Source: Escherichia phage SDYTW1-F1-2-2_3
Length of the DNA: 64,000 nt
Strand: one strand, 5' to 3'
Sequence record: OR296290.1
The position numbers were made by a program, and so were the translations under genes. The stretch's first letter is position 1. The number at the start of each line of letters is the position of its first letter. Below the pieces are notes generated by a model. That model did not search any database. It was not told the origin of the DNA and was given only the letters and a program-made list of their open reading frames with translations. Positions 1-11,077 of the stretch are shown here, piece by piece.

Positions 1-1981
1 TAGAACCAAGCGTACAACTTTCAGCATCGCGCCACGGAATCTGCTTAAAACACTCTGAGCAGTAGCCGAGGGTTGACCACATGGCTTTGGTGAAGTCAGT
101 GCTTCGGTTTCCGTCGAAGCTGACAACAGTTTTGCGGAGAGCTGTTCGTGATTCAGGAAACACACCTGCTTTCTCAGCAGGTTCCTCCTTTTTTGGCTTA
201 GTTGAGATTGCAAAAATACTGTTGCTACGTTTCTCAACATAAGCATCAACAACATCCTCCAGAGTGATGCCTGTCTGTTTCGCTGAGGAAGGTAATACAG
301 TCATACGACCGATCATATCTTCAGTTACACGTAAAGCAAACTCAGGACGACGGGCGTTTGTTGTATCTGTTGCTTTAATCCAGACATAACCATCTTTGAT
401 CGTAGCATTAGATACCTTCTTCTTTACATCTACAGCGCAGACTTTACAGATATCTTCACCACGAAGACGACTAAGTTCTTCATCGAACTCATTCTCCGTT
501 TTAACTTCACCGCAGATTTCACAAACACCAATAGGAGTTTCCTCCTCTTCTTCATCTTTAGGTTTAGTCAAACCTTCCAGACATTCAGGGTGCCAGTAGC
601 ATTGATATGCGAAGACTGCTTTAGGTGCATCCTTCCAATCAATGTGTTTGTCACAACCACCGCAATCACCATGAGAGTGTGCTTCCCAGAATTTACGAGT
701 GATAGTAACGCCATTCTTGTTGACGAAACTATCATTCATATCAAAAGGGATATCATCATCGAAGTCAGCAGTAGTAGACTCAGGCTCCTTTTTCTCCAGA
801 GATGGGTCAACAAAACGACCTGCTGTGATTACTAAACGAACCATAGCATTAACTTCGGAGATGCAGGATACTGTCCCACGGTAAACGATTTTAGGGTCTT
901 TCAGGGCATCCTGATAAGCCTTAATGTCTACGTTATGAACATCGCCTTCAATATACTCTTGAGACTTCTCATCGTAGATATAACCAATCATCTTACCACG
1001 AGAAGGAACAGCACCAGCTGTTGCATAAGGAACAAACTCATGTGGTGTGATTTCCACAGTCATGTCGCGGCGAATGTCAATGTTTCGATCGCTTGCGATT
1101 TTGTTTTGACTTACCACTGCGTTTCTTCGACGAACGTCTGCCGCTGTCACTCCCGGCTTCGTGTCGTAAGGATTGCTTGTACTGCTTTTTGAGGAACTTT
1201 GATAATTGCTTTGGCTGTAGTTGTTCGAGTAGTAATTGCCCCAACGATTGATTACCGTAAAAACCGGAAGCTCGTGGGCGACCTCTTCAACTAGAGTCAT
1301 ACTGTTGTTTGACATATCAAAGATATATTCTGTACCAACTTTACATTCAAAGTGCTCATCAATTCGGTTTTTGTGAGACTTAGAACGCTTCAGAATCCAC
1401 ATCAACATGTCTTCTTCAGAAGCACCAAACCAATCTCTGTTACAACGTGCGAGATGGAAAGGACGCTCTTCATTACGGATGATATGAAGGCGGTTATCAG
1501 AAGCATCATGCCAGATTAAGGTGAAAGCACCATCCAGCTTTTGAATAGTCTCTGCTGCACCAATAGTGTTAATAGAGTGGCAGATGTTCTCACTGTCTAC
1601 CTCGAAGTTTTTGCTGTCAGGTAACAGATCTTGGTCCATCAAGGTTCCGTTATGAACCAGAGTGATGTTACCATGTTGGAAAGGATGGGCGTTCTTGGCG
1701 TTAACTGCACCTTTCGTTGCATGACGGCTGTGACCAACAATCCATGAAGGCGCTACAGTGTAAGCTGTTTCACCAGTGGTGTGTTTCTTGTACTCATCTT
1801 GAAGGATGAATGCGAAAGAAGGAAGTGCCTCTTTATAAGTGAAGACTTCCTTAGTGCTCTTACGCTGACCAAAGATACCAGAGGAATGTTGCCCTCGGAA
1901 TACCCCAGCATAAAAGAGTTGGTTAAATACGTCTAAATCAGTGCTTGACAGATTACCGCCAGCTAATACGATGCCACAAAT
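1..1981 (-). CDS. class-II (Ntn-type) glutamine amidotransferase domain protein, asparagine-synthetase-like; 3' end beyond window; predicted AUU start
   Basis: Minus-strand frame open from window edge to 1981; N-terminus reads (M)CGIVLAGG... with downstream GH-R..T.G and HNG motifs typical of Gn-AT class II; AGGTGG SD-like 8 nt upstream of ATT; in-frame TAG two codons upstream leaves no ATG/GTG/TTG. Confidence 0.55.
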   Translation of the reverse strand, partial: MCGIVLAGGNLSSTDLDVFNQLFYAGVFRGQHSSGIFGQRKSTKEVFTYKEALPSFAFILQDEYKKHTTGETAYTVAPSWIVGHSRHATKGAVNAKNAHPFQHGNITLVHNGTLMDQDLLPDSKNFEVDSENICHSINTIGAAETIQKLDGAFTLIWHDASDNRLHIIRNEERPFHLARCNRDWFGASEEDMLMWILKRSKSHKNRIDEHFECKVGTEYIFDMSNNSMTLVEEVAHELPVFTVINRWGNYYSNNYSQSNYQSSSKSSTSNPYDTKPGVTAADVRRRNAVVSQNKIASDRNIDIRRDMTVEITPHEFVPYATAGAVPSRGKMIGYIYDEKSQEYIEGDVHNVDIKAYQDALKDPKIVYRGTVSCISEVNAMVRLVITAGRFVDPSLEKKEPESTTADFDDDIPFDMNDSFVNKNGVTITRKFWEAHSHGDCGGCDKHIDWKDAPKAVFAYQCYWHPECLEGLTKPKDEEEEETPIGVCEICGEVKTENEFDEELSRLRGEDICKVCAVDVKKKVSNATIKDGYVWIKATDTTNARRPEFALRVTEDMIGRMTVLPSSAKQTGITLEDVVDAYVEKRSNSIFAISTKPKKEEPAEKAGVFPESRTALRKTVVSFDGNRSTDFTKAMWSTLGYCSECFKQIPWRDAESCTLGS

Positions 1982-2060
1982 TTTCTAATCCACCTGAAGG
2001 GTAAACCCTTTCATCTAATTAACCTTTAAATTGTGCCCCTTTGCCAGAGGCACCCATTGA

Positions 2061-3164
2061 TTACAGCGCTTGCTCTAACTGATTTTCCAGATGATCTGGA
2101 ATGTACCCTGTGATGTTGTTATCACTGTGTCCTGACTCACGTAGCAAGTCAAAAATAGCACGGATACGTTGCTCTGGTGCAGATCGTACAGTAGATAGAT
2201 CGGTAGTACGAAGCATAACCAGAATCTCTTGGTACAAGTTGTTAGCGTTCCCTCGGACATATCCAAGGAATCCGTAGAAGTCTGAGATATGACGTAGGTC
2301 AACAAGAACTTCTCCGTTGGAGTTGGTTCGACGTAAACGAATACGACCAGACTGTTCTACTTCATGAGAACGACAATACAAAACATCACGGGCCATACAA
2401 TACCCTGAATGCAAGTCCGACTCGTCCAGATTGTAATCCAGAGGAAGGTAAGGAAGCATTGGGGCAAATCGTACAGTATTTAAATGCTCGATAAACTGAT
2501 CATTGCTCATCTCTGCGTTATCTAAAGCCAGCTTCTTCAACATCAAGAAGCGGTTAACCAGATTGAGAAGTTGACCACGTTTCCACTTAGGCTCACTGAT
2601 ACGGAACTCAATCGAACCATATTGGGCAAGTGGCAGAAGGTTCAGAGATGTATATTTATCCCATGAACGAACCAGACGGTTGAAGAACTCTTCATCGTCG
2701 TAGTTAAATGCGTCAGAGGCATTCATTACCTGTGCTTGTACCACTGCGAAAGCAGGGCAGAAGTTGCTACGGTAACGATGGTAGCCTGAACACTTGAACA
2801 ACATCTTTTCATAGAAGGTCCAAGCGAGAATGGTTTTCTTGAGGATATTACTATCAGCATCCCTCATATCCATATGAACGTGAGTAGAGCAACGCCAAGT
2901 CCCCTCGGCGTGCGATTCAGCTACAGCTTCACTCAGGTTGTTGATAGCGTCTAACAACTCCTGTCCGTTGTAAGGTCGTGAACATACCATTTCACAACCA
3001 TTACGCAGGGAACCATCCTCTGTACAATCCCACATATCTGCTTCGATATGATCGGAACCTTCGAGTTCAAGTTCAATACCGACACCGCACTGAAGTGCAA
3101 TTGAACTATGCGCCTCAGTTAAATGACCTTCTCGATATCCAAAAGTTTGCGCTACAGTTGTCAT
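2061..3164 (-). CDS. glutamine-synthetase-like amidoligase family protein (putative)
   Basis: 367-aa track ORF; GVGIELELEG and STHVHMDM motifs resemble the E-x-E and H-V-H signatures of amidoligase/GS-like ligases; adjacent to the amidotransferase gene. Confidence 0.45.
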   Translation of the reverse strand: MTTVAQTFGYREGHLTEAHSSIALQCGVGIELELEGSDHIEADMWDCTEDGSLRNGCEMVCSRPYNGQELLDAINNLSEAVAESHAEGTWRCSTHVHMDMRDADSNILKKTILAWTFYEKMLFKCSGYHRYRSNFCPAFAVVQAQVMNASDAFNYDDEEFFNRLVRSWDKYTSLNLLPLAQYGSIEFRISEPKWKRGQLLNLVNRFLMLKKLALDNAEMSNDQFIEHLNTVRFAPMLPYLPLDYNLDESDLHSGYCMARDVLYCRSHEVEQSGRIRLRRTNSNGEVLVDLRHISDFYGFLGYVRGNANNLYQEILVMLRTTDLSTVRSAPEQRIRAIFDLLRESGHSDNNITGYIPDHLENQLEQAL

Positions 3165-3778
3165 AATGAATCCACCAACGTAATATTGTAATTGCTAAGG
3201 TTTTCAGAAATGTGATGAAAGTGTTCCAGAAGTCGCATCGGTTGCTGACCGTAAGAGTCACGAGGCGCTTCCAGATCTACTTGTCCTACCAGTGCACCTT
3301 TATAATGCACCTTACCATCAGTAGGGTTGATGTAAATATAACGAGTGACCAATCCTTCGAATTCAGGATTGAACAGACTGTAAACCATCTCCCCGGAGAT
3401 AGCACGACCAACACCCGGAGCATTTCGAATCTTGTTACCCATCAAACCCTTTGCTCTCTGACGAACAGGGTTAATATGAGTCCAGCTTACAGTGTTACCG
3501 TTATGGAACAGATAACCAACATCAGGTGATTCAAGAATCAAGGTTGGGTCGAACACTGGAATATTCATCGTAGTATTTCGAAGATTCCCTTGCTCGTTCT
3601 TGTACCACTGCTCTACAACAAAGTACAGAGCCTGTTCTGCTTCGTGAGAGAAGTCATCACTGCGGAAGTTACCGCTCTGCTCAACACCAATCACAAAACA
3701 CGGAAGGTTGATATTACCTGCTCGTTTAGCAATCCATGTACCATTATAGTAATGAGAAAAATCAGCTACTAAGCTCAC
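3161..3778 (-). CDS. hypothetical protein in amidoligase cluster
   Basis: 205-aa ORF; 4-nt overlap with downstream gene; no motif recognised. Confidence 0.5.
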   Translation of the reverse strand: MSLVADFSHYYNGTWIAKRAGNINLPCFVIGVEQSGNFRSDDFSHEAEQALYFVVEQWYKNEQGNLRNTTMNIPVFDPTLILESPDVGYLFHNGNTVSWTHINPVRQRAKGLMGNKIRNAPGVGRAISGEMVYSLFNPEFEGLVTRYIYINPTDGKVHYKGALVGQVDLEAPRDSYGQQPMRLLEHFHHISENLSNYNITLVDSL

Positions 3779-3787
3779 GATAACCTC

Positions 3788-4597
3788 TTATGCTACCTGA
3801 AGGAGTTTGATCTGCTGGTCAGCTTCTTTAACGTTGTTGCCGTTAATGATTTCATGAAGCTTCTCAATCGGAAGGCGAGAGTGCAATGCCATCAGAGTGG
3901 ACATATCACACTGCTGAACAACCTTGTCAACCTGATCGTAAACAAACTTACGATTTTCACGATCACTAATCCAGAAATTAGACAGTGAACGATATTCAAT
4001 ACCGTAGTCTTTATAACGGATTGCAGACGCTTTACCGTAGAGTTCTTTACGGCGAGTATCTTTATCCATAATAACTGCTGGAAGAGATAGGAAGTAATCA
4101 CACAACACACCCAGCATCATCTGAGTTTGCAGAGTGATATCCAAAGCACCAACTACGCCGAGATGTACGTGACCACCGGCAGTACGAAGTCCCTTATTCT
4201 GAGAAGTCGGGGATGGGTTCTTCTGACCAGTGAAAGCGTTGAAATCAGGAGTGCATCCGAAGATGAACGCTGATTCATTGAAAGTCTTCATCTCTTCTTC
4301 AGTGAAGATGTGAGAGCTAACACCCGGAGCTGTTTCCATGTCCAGTTTGTTCAGGACATTGTTGGTGAGATCGATACCACGTTGCATGTTATCGTTAAAC
4401 GCTTCAAAGCCGCTCTGTGGGTCAATATCAAACTCAGCCAGTACGTTGTCCTCTTGAAGACGAACATCCTTAGCCAGAGTGATCTTATCGTCCTTAGAAC
4501 AACCTAACAGACCAGCTACAGAGGTGATAATACCATTGCTGGTACGAACGAACATTTCCGGGTCGCTTCCTATTAAGAATTTACGTTTAGTAGTCAT
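3788..4597 (-). CDS. COOH-NH2 ligase-like (GS/GCS-like) protein (putative)
   Basis: 269-aa ORF; FLIGSDPEMF and GGHVHLGV motifs resemble carboxylate-amine ligases; same operon as amidoligase. Confidence 0.4.
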   Translation of the reverse strand: MTTKRKFLIGSDPEMFVRTSNGIITSVAGLLGCSKDDKITLAKDVRLQEDNVLAEFDIDPQSGFEAFNDNMQRGIDLTNNVLNKLDMETAPGVSSHIFTEEEMKTFNESAFIFGCTPDFNAFTGQKNPSPTSQNKGLRTAGGHVHLGVVGALDITLQTQMMLGVLCDYFLSLPAVIMDKDTRRKELYGKASAIRYKDYGIEYRSLSNFWISDRENRKFVYDQVDKVVQQCDMSTLMALHSRLPIEKLHEIINGNNVKEADQQIKLLQVA

Positions 4598-5064
4598 GCT
4601 TTAGTCCAACCTTTATGAGATAGATAGTTTTTAAATCTGCCACTGTGCACAGCGCCCATGTGGCCTTGATGTAAGTCGTTGCTTCTACAGAAGTCTCTAA
4701 GATTGTATATTGTTACAACCTCGCCATCTGGAGATCTAAACTTCCAAAATCTAGCATTCCCTTTCACAGCGTTTTCTTCACTGGTCAGAAGTTGGAAATT
4801 ACTTGGGTGGTTATTAAGTTTATCACCATCGATGTGATCAACAGTCATACCATCCGGAATAGGTCCAATAAACAATTCATACATAAGTCTATGTAATAAA
4901 AAGTTCCTTGTTATCTTTTCAGGGGCTTGCACTGTTGTAAACTTTAGATAACCATCCTTATCAGGAAACAGTTTCCTCTGTTTCCCTGTTCTTGAATGGA
5001 ATATACTACCATCTTCGAACACTAAGAAGGTAGCAACTCCGACTACTAACTCCCTAAATTCCAT
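4594..5064 (-). CDS. HNH homing endonuclease
   Basis: 156 aa; VDHIDGDKLNNHPSNFQLLTSEEN matches the HNH His-Asn-His motif; free-standing between ligase-cluster genes. Confidence 0.65.
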   Translation of the reverse strand: MEFRELVVGVATFLVFEDGSIFHSRTGKQRKLFPDKDGYLKFTTVQAPEKITRNFLLHRLMYELFIGPIPDGMTVDHIDGDKLNNHPSNFQLLTSEENAVKGNARFWKFRSPDGEVVTIYNLRDFCRSNDLHQGHMGAVHSGRFKNYLSHKGWTKA

Positions 5065-5091
5065 AGGAAGGAGCCAATAAGGAAAGCGCGC

Positions 5092-6063
5092 TTAGTCATT
5101 GTAATACTCCACTAATTCAGAAAAGAGAGATGAGATTGTGTTACCAACTTCTTCAAGAGTAAGACCGGAATCTGCTCCAGTTCTTTGAATCAGTCGGGCT
5201 GTAAAGTTTTGTACTGTAATGTTTCCCAACTTGTCGTCTATTGCTTCACGTTTGTGACCATAACAGTTGGACCAGAGTCTTAACCACTCTGACATTGTTT
5301 CATACTCGTCCGGGTCTTGATCTTTAGCACGAGCAAATCTTCGTAAGGCATCTTGGTTATGGTTACGAACATAACCATTCTCGTTGTCGCCAACACCGAA
5401 GGGGTTTTGAACCCATACTTGCTTCGTGTATTCATCAGAGTCTACAACCAAAGGAAGGAATGCTGCTGCTGACATATTGTTATTAACAACAATAGAGGTG
5501 CTCTCGCTACTCCCATTGGCTCTTCCTCGTTGAGACCACCCACCGAAGAAGTCACGACCCAACCCAGCTAACACTAGAGCGATGCCGATGCGTTTACGCT
5601 TCAGCCACTCTTCCCTGTCTTCAATTCCTTCTGCTAGGAAATCCATTCCACGATACTGCCCTTCCAGAATACTACGGAAAAGCATAAGTCCTGTGAAGAT
5701 CTGATCTGCTGGATGCTCACGGAGGTTGACAGCAACACTATTCGCTGAAGTGATTGTAAATACGTCACGATAGCAAGACATAGAGTTCATAATGTCTGCT
5801 GTTTCAACCAAGTTCTTTTCAATATCAGATGCAACATGACCGTGAAAAGAGTGAGTCCAGTAATTCAACATCTCCAATTGCAAGTTGATATCACGGTTGA
5901 AGCGTCTATAATGCCTCTCTCCCATGATAACTTCACCATTAACATCAGTTACGCACTGGCCTTGCATGTAGTTGTGGATACCGAAGCATCCACGACCTAA
6001 GAACTTCTGTTCCCCTAAATCTTGTTGAAGACTCAGAGGTACGATCGTTGTGGAGATTGACAT
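5092..6063 (-). CDS. hypothetical protein in amidoligase cluster
   Basis: 323-aa ORF co-directional with cluster; family not recognised. Confidence 0.5.
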   Translation of the reverse strand: MSISTTIVPLSLQQDLGEQKFLGRGCFGIHNYMQGQCVTDVNGEVIMGERHYRRFNRDINLQLEMLNYWTHSFHGHVASDIEKNLVETADIMNSMSCYRDVFTITSANSVAVNLREHPADQIFTGLMLFRSILEGQYRGMDFLAEGIEDREEWLKRKRIGIALVLAGLGRDFFGGWSQRGRANGSSESTSIVVNNNMSAAAFLPLVVDSDEYTKQVWVQNPFGVGDNENGYVRNHNQDALRRFARAKDQDPDEYETMSEWLRLWSNCYGHKREAIDDKLGNITVQNFTARLIQRTGADSGLTLEEVGNTISSLFSELVEYYND

Positions 6064-6073
6064 AACTAACCTT

Positions 6074-7270
6074 TTATTTTCCTAAAAATAATCCGCTCAT
6101 AACACCATCCCACTCAGAGGACGGAATCACTGAATACTCCGAACTTTGGTCCAGAGTTCCACTACTAAATCGCTGAACAATGTTATAGATGTTGAACATA
6201 TCTTTAGTCTCAGCGCGATAAGCGTAGACTAGTCTGTCAGCCGTTCTTTCATCTTTAGATACTCGACGAGCAAAGGTAACCAGAAGGTTATCACCTTTCA
6301 GTATTTCTGACTCATCTTTTACTAAATCAGGATGCATAACTGGCAAGAACATCGAGTTATTAACTCTCAATTCTGCTGTTTCGTCATTATCATAATGAAT
6401 CCACTTAAAGTCTTCATCACGGAAGTGACCGCATCCATCTCTGTATGACTGTTGACGCCAAGGTACTTGGAATGCTTCAGCATACTTATCAGCCATGCCT
6501 ACTGTAAACAGCGACGCTGGGAAGATACAAGCATCCCAATCATTACCAACCAGAGTTGCTTTCGTTTCACCCAAGAGGTTAGTGTAAGTGCTAACCATTC
6601 GGGAATAAACGTAAGCCTGAAGGATTGTCCAACCTTCAACCAACCATTTATGAAGGAAGGTTTCAACTTGACTCTCTTCATCTTCACAATAGAAGGTTCG
6701 ATCTAACATCAAATAGAACAGACAACGATCAGCAGGAACATTCTCAGTTGCTACACCCATAAAACCTTTATCGTGCCAGCGTAAACAGGAGGGACGATCT
6801 TTGTCCACAAATGCTTCCATAGCTTCCAGTACAGCACGAGGTGTGGTTTGATGTTCAGGGTTTTTACTGTTCCAACGATCAATGTTATTCTTAGGAGGTG
6901 TGTCTTCATCTTCATACGAACACCAACTTAAAGCTTCAGCTACGTGCTTTCCATCACGCCAGCGTCTAAAACCTAACATCTTCATGTGAGTTCCGGAGTT
7001 CCAGATATGCTTGATTTTACACATATCCATTTCTCGACTTAACAGGAACTCTTCCCCATCAGCACTACGAACGTTAGCTTCTTCATGCCACACTCGAACG
7101 TGCATATTCCACCCATGAGTTGCCTCATACATGTTAGGGTCGAAGTATTCATCTTCGTCATCATCTTCATCAACGCCACCATTATAGTTGCGAAGCTGAA
7201 GGAACCCATAACAAGGAGGGTGGACCGTTAAAACATTACCTTCAGTATCTTCTAATGTTACTGGAAACAT
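6074..7270 (-). CDS. hypothetical protein with acidic tract, in amidoligase cluster
   Basis: 398-aa ORF; DEDDDEDEY acidic run near N-terminus; family not recognised. Confidence 0.5.
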   Translation of the reverse strand: MFPVTLEDTEGNVLTVHPPCYGFLQLRNYNGGVDEDDDEDEYFDPNMYEATHGWNMHVRVWHEEANVRSADGEEFLLSREMDMCKIKHIWNSGTHMKMLGFRRWRDGKHVAEALSWCSYEDEDTPPKNNIDRWNSKNPEHQTTPRAVLEAMEAFVDKDRPSCLRWHDKGFMGVATENVPADRCLFYLMLDRTFYCEDEESQVETFLHKWLVEGWTILQAYVYSRMVSTYTNLLGETKATLVGNDWDACIFPASLFTVGMADKYAEAFQVPWRQQSYRDGCGHFRDEDFKWIHYDNDETAELRVNNSMFLPVMHPDLVKDESEILKGDNLLVTFARRVSKDERTADRLVYAYRAETKDMFNIYNIVQRFSSGTLDQSSEYSVIPSSEWDGVMSGLFLGK

Positions 7271-7281
7271 TATACCAACCT

Positions 7282-7644
7282 CTATTGGTTTTTAATCAAC
7301 TCAATCGACTTACGGATATAAAGAATATCTCGGAAGTTTCGATAGTTGTTCATAAATTGGTGCTTCTGGAAAGTAGCTTCTTCCAGAGCTTTCTTTGCTT
7401 CTGTGTAGTTTTTACGGGCAAGATGTACAACCCGCTCTGGTAACACATTTGCATGACGGATGACATACTTGTGAGCTTTCATGTTGCTTTGCTCACGAGT
7501 AATCTTACCTTTAGCAACTTTGATACCATTTGCAATCCAAGCAAGTTCTTGCTCAAGCTCATCGTTGGACATTCCACCGAGATTTGATGCAACCTTGTTC
7601 AGAGTTTCAATATTAACGTTGCCCTTAATGGGACGTGTATTCAT
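7282..7644 (-). CDS. hypothetical protein
   Basis: 120-aa ORF, tight spacing with neighbours. Confidence 0.45.
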   Translation of the reverse strand: MNTRPIKGNVNIETLNKVASNLGGMSNDELEQELAWIANGIKVAKGKITREQSNMKAHKYVIRHANVLPERVVHLARKNYTEAKKALEEATFQKHQFMNNYRNFRDILYIRKSIELIKNQ

Positions 7645-7646
7645 AC

Positions 7647-7799
7647 TTACTCCTGTTGTTTACACTCGTCAATAACCCACTGATAAGTGGATTGCCCAGA
7701 AAAGAAACACTGAATAAATCCAGATGTTCTCTGCGTTACCAGTGCTAGTGCACAAATCACTACCGCTGCTGCTAGCAGTTTTAAATCTAATTTAGACAT
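7647..7799 (-). CDS. small membrane protein (putative)
   Basis: Start moved to internal ATG (7797-7799) preceded by GAGAGGAAA SD; hydrophobic LLAAAVVICALALV segment. Confidence 0.35.
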   Translation of the reverse strand: MSKLDLKLLAAAVVICALALVTQRTSGFIQCFFSGQSTYQWVIDECKQQE

Positions 7800-7995
7800 A
7801 TTTCCTCTCGTTGAATTTAAAAAAGGACTCTCCGAAAAGAGCCAAGCTTTAAATCCAAAAAAGATATCACCCAATATCTGTGGATAACCTGCTCTTAAAA
7901 TATCTATCCGACGGATGTTTGAGGATTATTCCTCGCCCTAGCATCGGCCCCATACGGGAAATATATTAAGATTAGGTTAGTTGAGTTAGAATAAC

Positions 7996-10973: not shown

Positions 10974-11077
10974 AACTGCCTCCTATTTGATTTGGCGCAC
11001 CGTGTAGGACTCCAACCTACAACCCATTTCTTAGAAGGAAATTGCTCTCTGCAATTGAGCTAACGGCGCAGAATTAT

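Follow-up and report, generated by a model that had tools for sequence, protein, structure and literature searches.

The DNA analysed here is a 64,000-nt stretch of Escherichia phage SDYTW1-F1-2-2_3 (sequence record OR296290.1), called the window below, and it comes from a podophage of E. coli in the genus Kuravirus (phiEco32-like, Gordonclarkvirinae). Positions 1-7270 carry a cassette of seven co-directional minus-strand open reading frames (ORFs), which are named, in the order of rising coordinates, F, E, D, C, HNH, B and A. An earlier reading of the letters alone (the original prediction) had placed seven such genes here and taken them for an amide-bond-forming enzyme set, and all seven ORFs lie where it put them. 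Positions 1-7700 share 95–97% identity with phages NJ01, SU10 and PE006 (99 phage records matched overall), and the cassette proteins with counterparts in phiEco32, the founding example of this system, are 95–98% identical to them. The cassette is therefore already known: it has been known in silico since 2009, and the copy in the window is nearly identical to the founding examples.

The genes are tightly packed. D and E overlap by 4 nt (the stop of D over the start of E), HNH and C also overlap by 4 nt, the other gaps are 9–27 nt, and only the F gene is preceded by a longer spacer of 79 nt. All cassette products are soluble and contain no transmembrane segment, and most of them are acidic. 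Family calls were judged against the curated (gathering) cut-offs of Pfam, and NCBIfam and PHROGs were also scanned.

Gene F (1-1981, minus strand) encodes a class-II (N-terminal nucleophile, Ntn) glutamine amidotransferase, of which 660 of 676 codons are inside the window and only the last 16 are cut off. It matches Pfam GATase_6 with 55.1 bits (cut-off 27; 1e-14), and a profile of F from nine lineages aligns to the glutaminase domain of E. coli GlmS (1xff; E 3.8e-11). In this alignment the catalytic Cys, whose codon TGT comes right after the start codon, falls on Cys1 of GlmS, so the partial class-II enzyme with an N-terminal Cys had been recognized correctly. R29, R86, T89, N111-G112 and D129 of F correspond to R26, R73, T76, N98-G99 and D123 of GlmS, and they are invariant in seven to nine lineages. 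Because the glutamine-site residues of GlmS are all kept in the nine lineages, F is predicted from its sequence to be a competent hydrolase of L-glutamine or an L-gamma-glutamyl amide.

Behind the GATase domain of F (about nt 1277-1981) come a linker of low complexity, a small domain that is conserved (about nt 780-1090) and a C-terminal part with one to three zinc-ribbon-like CxxC...CxxC motifs. This architecture is retained even in the shorter orthologues of the PaP3-like, RIO-1 and PA11 phages. No significant Pfam match was found for the C-terminal 376 aa, and neither Pfam nor NCBIfam scans found a SIS (sugar-isomerase), PRTase or AsnS domain in F. Many GenBank records label this protein as GlmS. 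The N-terminal glutaminase domain is indeed homologous, but F has no SIS domains and the label was rejected; the GlmS models PRK00331 and TIGR01135 score only 43 bits (cut-off 381) and 35.8 bits (cut-off 418), with matches that cover residues 2-197 only.

The start of F is unusual. No ATG, GTG or TTG precedes the catalytic Cys codon; an ATT stands there instead (1981-1979), with an in-frame TAG ahead of it. The leader between E and F (1979-2060, minus strand) contains a hairpin at 2053-2033 (GTGCCTCT-GGCAA-AGGGGCAC), a mini-ORF of nine codons, MKGFTLQVD* (2014-1985), which is in frame and ends 3 nt before the ATT, a second hairpin with a 5-bp stem, AAGGG-TTTA-CCCTT (2010-1997), and a Shine-Dalgarno (SD)-like sequence, AGGTGGA (1995-1989). 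The same leader, with its ATT, AGGTGGA, 5-bp hairpin and mini-ORF, is found in NJ01, SU7, KBNP1711 and even in Aeromonas phage BUCT695, a distant relative. The gene reads ATG-TGT in GAP52, Privateer and SJSY21, which lack a 16-nt stretch that includes the SD-like sequence and the hairpin's 3' arm. From this comparison, we conclude that translation of F probably begins at AUU, or re-initiates there after the mini-ORF, which would mean that the records of NJ01, SU7 and KBNP1711 annotate an N-terminally truncated F that lacks the catalytic Cys. An Rfam search of the leader gave no significant match, the glutamine riboswitch included, and its predicted fold is not better than that of shuffled sequences (z -1.28).

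Two putative ligases accompany the amidotransferase. E (2061-3164, minus strand; 367 aa) is a putative amidoligase of the Amidoligase_2 family (PF12224; 33.9 bits, cut-off 22, 3.8e-8; phrog_7469) with relatives in 302 phage records. Its residues E31/E33/E35, R54, E58, H95/H97/D99, R130 and E186/R188/E191 are invariant in seven lineages and make up the motifs ExExE, STHxHxD and EFR; a role in binding metal and nucleotide, as for such residues in other ligases of the superfamily, is suggested for them by the family description only. C (3788-4597, minus strand; 269 aa) matches COOH-NH2_lig (PF14395; 34.1 bits, cut-off 25, 2.2e-8) and phrog_3815, 'COOH.NH2 ligase' (6.7e-118). The Pfam description of PF14395 is 'Phage phiEco32-like COOH.NH2 ligase-type 2', and the orthologue of C in the phiEco32 record (H120) is annotated as COOH.NH2 ligase. 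Invariant in C are D12-P13-E14, E49-D50-N51, E55, H96, H143/H145, R182-R183 and E201/R203, with the motifs DPE, QEDN, GGHxH, RR and EYR. The ligase motifs GVGIELE and HVHMD in E and GGHVH in C, which had been picked out from the letters alone, thus fall on columns that are invariant across seven phage lineages. C is the most conserved gene of the cassette, with 80% identity to SU7 and 44–50% to Grimontviridae. Profile alignment by hhalign gave no relationship between E and C (0.2%), nor between A, B or D and either ligase, and sequence-profile searches of the PDB with C, D and E returned nothing significant, so that no solved homologue of either ligase is detectable by sequence. With the profile matches and conserved catalytic residues of F, E and C, the amide-bond-forming set is borne out.

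D (3161-3778, minus strand; 205 aa), B (323 aa) and A (398 aa) have no Pfam or NCBIfam match, and PHROGs assigns them to families of unknown function only, in agreement with the three proteins of unrecognised family in the original prediction. Fold modelling indicates that D is a non-catalytic protein of tandem SH3/KOW/Tudor-like beta-barrels. Its best fold matches are RNA-associated barrels, but D, like F, is acidic in every lineage compared, and a role as nucleic-acid binder was dropped.

B (5092-6063, minus strand) belongs to a phage-only family and carries an N-terminal C-F-G (C26), and A (6074-7270, minus strand) carries PPCYGF (Cys20) followed by the acidic tract DEDDDEDEY, which had been noticed before and is present in this 398-aa protein. 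All A/B-type proteins contain an invariant Cys-Phe/Tyr-Gly motif about 15–27 residues from the N-terminus. The motif extends to Kuravirus A, RIO-1 gp7 and both upstream PaP3-like proteins, the latter fitting the spacing only with internal Met starts and not with the annotated ones. In A-type proteins an acidic tract comes after the motif, and both elements of A also occur in the A proteins that GAP52, Privateer and BUCT695 encode. Among 32 diverse members of the family, the near-universal residues are C26, F27, G28, D120, R130, Q219, G230, Y231 and R233. A and B of distant phages are paralogues (hhalign 96.8%). For Kuravirus A itself, homology to the A/B family is not significant (hhalign 7.8%) and the link is made by motif and gene position; A is probably a diverged paralogue of B. 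It evolves fast, with 41–47% identity to SU7 and KBNP1711, the lowest in the cassette. The N-terminus of B is modelled as disordered, yet it bears the only tripeptide of the family that is 100% invariant. The residue pattern points to a thiol-dependent enzyme or a dedicated acceptor, to judge from the alignments.

An exhaustive profile search with B recovered only 23 proteins, with no annotated relative and no known fold; the single long match, P0055, is an artefact of MopE repeats. A resemblance of the CFG motif to MsrA (GCFWG) or arylamine N-acetyltransferase was dropped, as there was neither a Pfam match nor a fold match. A/B-type genes occupy 5092-7270 in the window, 2560-4634 in locus L009 and 1246-2088 in locus L010. 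The PaP3-like homologues orf48 and orf47 overlap by 183 nt, and their annotated starts are probably too far upstream.

The HNH endonuclease gene seen inside the cluster is real (HNH_3, 62.5 bits, cut-off 24.8, 2.8e-17). Its ORF (4594-5064) lies in an insertion at about 4565-5073 on the minus strand, and its presence at this site varies among relatives: the gene is missing from NJ01, KBNP1711 and Bas91. Its DNA is 97.7% identical to the copy at the same site in SU7, whereas the flanking genes are only 76–81% identical. This indicates a recent mobile insertion that probably spread by lateral homing between genera and stands outside the pathway.

The seven genes are only a part of the module, and its continuation beyond the left edge of the window was out of sight for the original prediction. 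In NJ01 and Bas91, the sequence past the left edge of the window contains two small ORFs (s1 and s2), a RimK-like ATP-grasp ligase, a few small ORFs and a gamma-glutamyl cyclotransferase (GGCT) of the GGACT family, and a primase/helicase gene follows one small ORF after GGCT. The ATP-grasp and GGCT genes were thus seen in relatives that are 95–97% identical over the cassette DNA, outside the window itself. The ATP-grasp enzyme is RimK-like by annotation and motifs, the ATP-grasp motifs being present in the relatives, and the GGCT protein matches the GGACT domain. Between the amidotransferase and ATP-grasp genes, s1 (NJ01 5715-5948) encodes a basic protein of 77 aa (Pfam DUF7195, 4.7e-17) and is found in all seven Gordonclarkvirinae and Grimontviridae lineages examined. 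On the other side, 11 nt upstream of A, a gene at 7282-7644 (minus strand) encodes a basic protein of 120 aa (pI 9.9; phrog_11370, function unknown). It holds the same position in SU7 and KBNP1711, i.e. in all three genera of Gordonclarkvirinae, and probably belongs to the same transcription unit as the cassette. Taken together, a class-II amidotransferase, an Amidoligase_2 protein and a COOH-NH2 ligase are co-linear in the window, and the ATP-grasp and GGCT genes continue the series in relatives, which is the composition of a phiEco32-type cassette.

The gene order is conserved in several podophage lineages. The order A-B-C-D-E-F-s1-s2-ATP-grasp-...-GGCT is kept in Kuravirus, Suseptimavirus and Nieuwekanaalvirus, and it is largely kept in four genera of Grimontviridae, represented by Cronobacter GAP52, Proteus Privateer, Aeromonas BUCT695 and Vibrio SJSY21. 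Only one A/B-type protein and one small ORF are present in SJSY21, and among these four GGCT was identified in BUCT695 and SJSY21 only. The core C-D-E-F together with ATP-grasp and GGCT also occurs in Pseudomonas Bruynoghevirus (PaP3-like), with A/B-like proteins upstream, and the core recurs in the Zobellviridae RIO-1 and PA11 with F placed before C; no GGCT was found in the stretch read of PA11. A primase/helicase gene lies within about three genes downstream in Kuravirus, Suseptimavirus, Nieuwekanaalvirus, BUCT695, Bruynoghevirus and Zobellviridae, while in GAP52 and Privateer an RNA ligase or ribonucleotide reductase gene is found downstream instead. Proteomics of SU10 lysates found the proteins of the amidotransferase, ATP-grasp and GGCT genes, and the published early set of this phage includes the cassette genes. 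As side observations, the regions upstream of the cassette in GAP52 (1687-4477) and Privateer (1066-4297) encode TerD/TerZ-like, band-7 (SPFH), nicotinamide phosphoribosyltransferase and RtcB proteins, and the RNA ligase downstream in GAP52 is RNA ligase 2; Kuravirus has none of these genes at this place.

In silico accounts of the cassette, as a 'peptidoglycan modification cassette', go back to Iyer et al. (2009, Mol Biosyst), Hardies et al. (2013, J Virol) and Duhaime et al. (2017, Front Microbiol). This published work names peptide linkages of peptidoglycan, and the last of the three relayed the hypothesis that the cell surface is altered to prevent superinfection. The copy in the window is the same system as the phiEco32/RIO-1-type cassette, with matching gene content and order, and it differs by the extra HNH homing endonuclease and by nothing in kind. 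An uncharacterised biochemical system had been proposed for this place; the system is not an unrecognised one, as PF14395 is named after phiEco32 and a peptidoglycan hypothesis, untested, has been published. The reading of D as a predicted SH3-like adaptor, the putative Cys-Phe/Tyr-Gly family of A and B and the probable AUU start of F are what the present analysis adds, as these points were not found in the published accounts accessible to us.

That the chemistry is a glutamine-dependent, multi-step carboxylate-amine ligation seems highly probable. Beyond this, we infer a series of reaction steps, a complex and an acceptor, building on the families to which the proteins belong, on their conserved catalytic residues, on synteny and on the fold of D. 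E, C and the RimK-like ATP-grasp ligase would each use ATP to activate a carboxylate, which would then be coupled to an amine. With its N-terminal Cys, F would hydrolyse L-glutamine (or an L-gamma-glutamyl amide) and pass the ammonia to one of the ligases, by which a carboxylate would be turned into an amide; a separate ligase is proposed here because F has no synthase domain of its own. The GGCT-type cyclotransferase would remove an L-gamma-glutamyl group as 5-oxoproline. D, together with the small domain and zinc ribbons of F, may keep the enzymes assembled with one another or bound to the acceptor, A and B may be thiol-dependent accessory enzymes or acceptors, and the acceptor would be a peptide-type substrate. 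In this reading the phiEco32-type cassette works as a soluble assembly of several enzymes in the cytoplasm, where amide bonds of a peptide-like, glutamyl type are built or edited; we hold it tentatively, at somewhat short of an even chance. The family calls, invariant residues, gene order, tight packing, soluble products and early expression in SU10 speak for it, and the published in silico work arrived at a similar general view.

Cytoplasmic precursors of the murein stem peptide, the published idea, are the single most likely acceptor for such an assembly, which still leaves this target on the doubtful side. It is suggested by the precedent of MurT/GatD and by the habit of SH3-type barrels to bind peptides. 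In peptidoglycan amidation by MurT/GatD (and by LtsA/AsnB-type systems), an ATP-dependent enzyme activates a peptide carboxylate and receives ammonia from a glutaminase. For F and its ligase step, no precedent is better established than this pairing of a stand-alone glutaminase with a carboxylate-activating ligase that depends on ATP. However, GatD is a class-I glutaminase and MurT is of the Mur-ligase type, while the cassette has the class-II F together with Amidoligase_2 and COOH-NH2_lig proteins, and there is no homology between them.

Several points weigh against the assembly and its murein target. Literature searches found no experimental study of any cassette member, no partner synthase was identified for F, and the ligases have no solved homologue that can be detected by sequence. 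The L-gamma-glutamyl groups on which GGCT enzymes act have their alpha-amine free, which is a misfit with the N-acylated D-isoglutamate of murein. All the proteins are cytoplasmic, so any effect on the cell wall must go through precursors, and by our own reasoning it is hard to see how enough of the sacculus could be changed in one infection to block superinfection. Moreover, the deep conservation beside replication genes looks like a core function and not like an exclusion device, which counts against the peptidoglycan part.

A protein acceptor comes next after murein precursors and is rather unlikely. In such protein or peptide tagging, a protein of the phage or the host would receive glutamate-type residues or some other moiety from the ligases, much as RimK modifies ribosomal protein S6 or PafA/Dop act in pupylation; the glutaminase would convert Glu and Gln forms, GGCT would remove links of the gamma-glutamyl-lysine type, and A and B (with their invariant Cys and flexible N-terminus) or the basic 77-aa s1 would serve as acceptors or carriers. 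The RimK-like annotation and motifs of the ATP-grasp enzyme fit this proposal, as does the match of GGCT to the GGACT family, which acts on gamma-glutamylamines. PafA and Dop are also classed, with gamma-glutamylcysteine ligases, in the carboxylate-amine ligase superfamily, and pupylation, with its two paralogous ligase-fold enzymes and Gln/Glu interconversion on a gamma-carboxylate, resembles the chemistry proposed here. Furthermore, macromolecular recognition would be a fitting role for D, which is universal, non-catalytic and SH3-like, and for the extra domains of F; the disordered model of the B N-terminus with its fully invariant tripeptide would suit an acceptor, and s1 is conserved and basic. 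On the other hand, no small protein was found whose C-terminus is Gln/Glu (Pup-like) or acidic (LysW-like), and unlike the two enzymes of pupylation, E and C are not detectably similar and have no link to a proteasome. As carriers of either type, s1 and s2 were rejected: they end in ...KGI(K...), a shared ending that comes from the ribosome-binding site of the gene that follows. In A and B, D120, R130, Q219 and G-Y-x-R are retained as well, a pattern more like an active site than a passive acceptor, and no result points to a target.

A small gamma-glutamyl metabolite is improbable to about the same degree as a protein target. Here a gamma-glutamyl peptide or conjugate (glutathione-like, an amidated thiol peptide or a gamma-glutamyl-polyamine) would be made or remodelled, and would serve redox-dependent dNTP supply or DNA packaging. 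The families mirror glutathione metabolism, with its GshA-type ligase, ATP-grasp GshB-type ligase and ChaC/GGCT-type enzyme, and GS-like PuuA together with a glutaminase-fold hydrolase does likewise for putrescine. The superfamily of C is, according to Iyer et al. and Pfam, that of the GshA-type gamma-glutamylcysteine ligases. In addition, the cassette adjoins replication and nucleotide genes, with glutaredoxin, thioredoxin, ThyX or ribonucleotide reductase nearby in RIO-1, Privateer and Kuravirus. The likeness to glutathione synthesis (GshA, GshB, ChaC/GGCT) and to gamma-glutamyl protecting-group pathways such as that of butirosin (BtrJ/BtrG) holds at the superfamily level only, however, and the cassette adds a glutaminase, a second ligase, an SH3-like subunit and A/B. 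The host already makes glutathione, such pathways rarely need an SH3-like subunit, zinc ribbons and two large accessory proteins, and family names do not fix substrate specificity in members as divergent as these.

Host defence offers other readings. The original prediction had also mentioned anti-defence and modification of virion proteins, and neither received specific support: PADLOC gave no match for any cassette protein, and the SU10 genes are in the early set. A bolder form, which we regard as very unlikely, would make the product the missing factor in the restriction and defence resistance of Gordonclarkvirinae, either as an amide-linked DNA modification or as a covalent tag by which a nuclease or defence protein of the host is disabled, with A and B as new thiol-dependent transferases; if true, the ligase families would gain a role to which they were never before tied. 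The BASEL authors report no known modification pathway in these phages, and related phages are reported to resist restriction-modification (RM) systems.

Restriction sites in the window bear on the DNA part of this question. For example, sites observed versus expected over the whole 64,000 nt are 0 versus 12 for BamHI, 0 versus 19 for PstI, 0 versus 12 for KpnI and 1 versus 20 for SacI. SphI and MscI are absent as well (for these two, BamHI, PstI and KpnI, 10–19 sites are expected each), NcoI has 1 site, CCWGG occurs 6 times (93 expected) and GATC 146 times (304 expected). Such avoidance marks DNA that is exposed to restriction and not shielded from it, and argues against a blanket modification; the lack of site avoidance expected of DNA shielded by a hypermodification pathway is not seen in the window. 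RM resistance at EcoRV and EcoKI stays unexplained, because their sites (23 and 11 in the window) are not depleted. An amide-linked group on phage DNA (or on tRNA/RNA) that would explain this resistance is therefore the least probable reading: the undepleted EcoRV and EcoKI sites, the primase/helicase within about three genes of the cassette in most lineages read and the zinc ribbons of F can be cited for it, but they stand against the strong avoidance of many other sites, and the acidity of D and F in every lineage. Phage tf speaks against it too: it has amidoligase and amidotransferase genes and was studied for site-specific DNA nicks, with no base modification reported in the accessible part of its published account. 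We also know of no amidoligase of these families in any DNA-modification pathway.

The cassette takes up about 9 kb, more than one-tenth of the genome, and it is found in nearly the same order near replication genes in podophages of Escherichia, Cronobacter, Proteus, Aeromonas, Vibrio, Pseudomonas and Pseudoalteromonas; conservation of this degree implies that it serves an important step of infection. To the fifteen-year-old question of its product the window adds refinements only, as a correct re-discovery and not a new system. Once the product is identified, two Pfam ligase families and the phage-only families of D and A/B would have a function. Since the BASEL collection holds Kuravirus isolates that plate on engineered E. 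coli K-12, deletion and mass-spectrometry work is practical.

Around the cassette, no promoter for it was identified. A terminator-like hairpin with a T-run was found by consensus scan upstream of the cassette (7826-7843, minus strand), and in SU7 a terminator is annotated upstream of the homologous gene. The hairpin falls within a mechanically listed ORF of 75 aa (7647-7874), which is probably shorter (50 aa in relatives) or spurious. A tRNA-Arg gene (anticodon TCT) lies at 10993-11069 on the minus strand amid small early ORFs, and in SU7 and Bas91 a tRNA-Arg gene is likewise found among small early ORFs.

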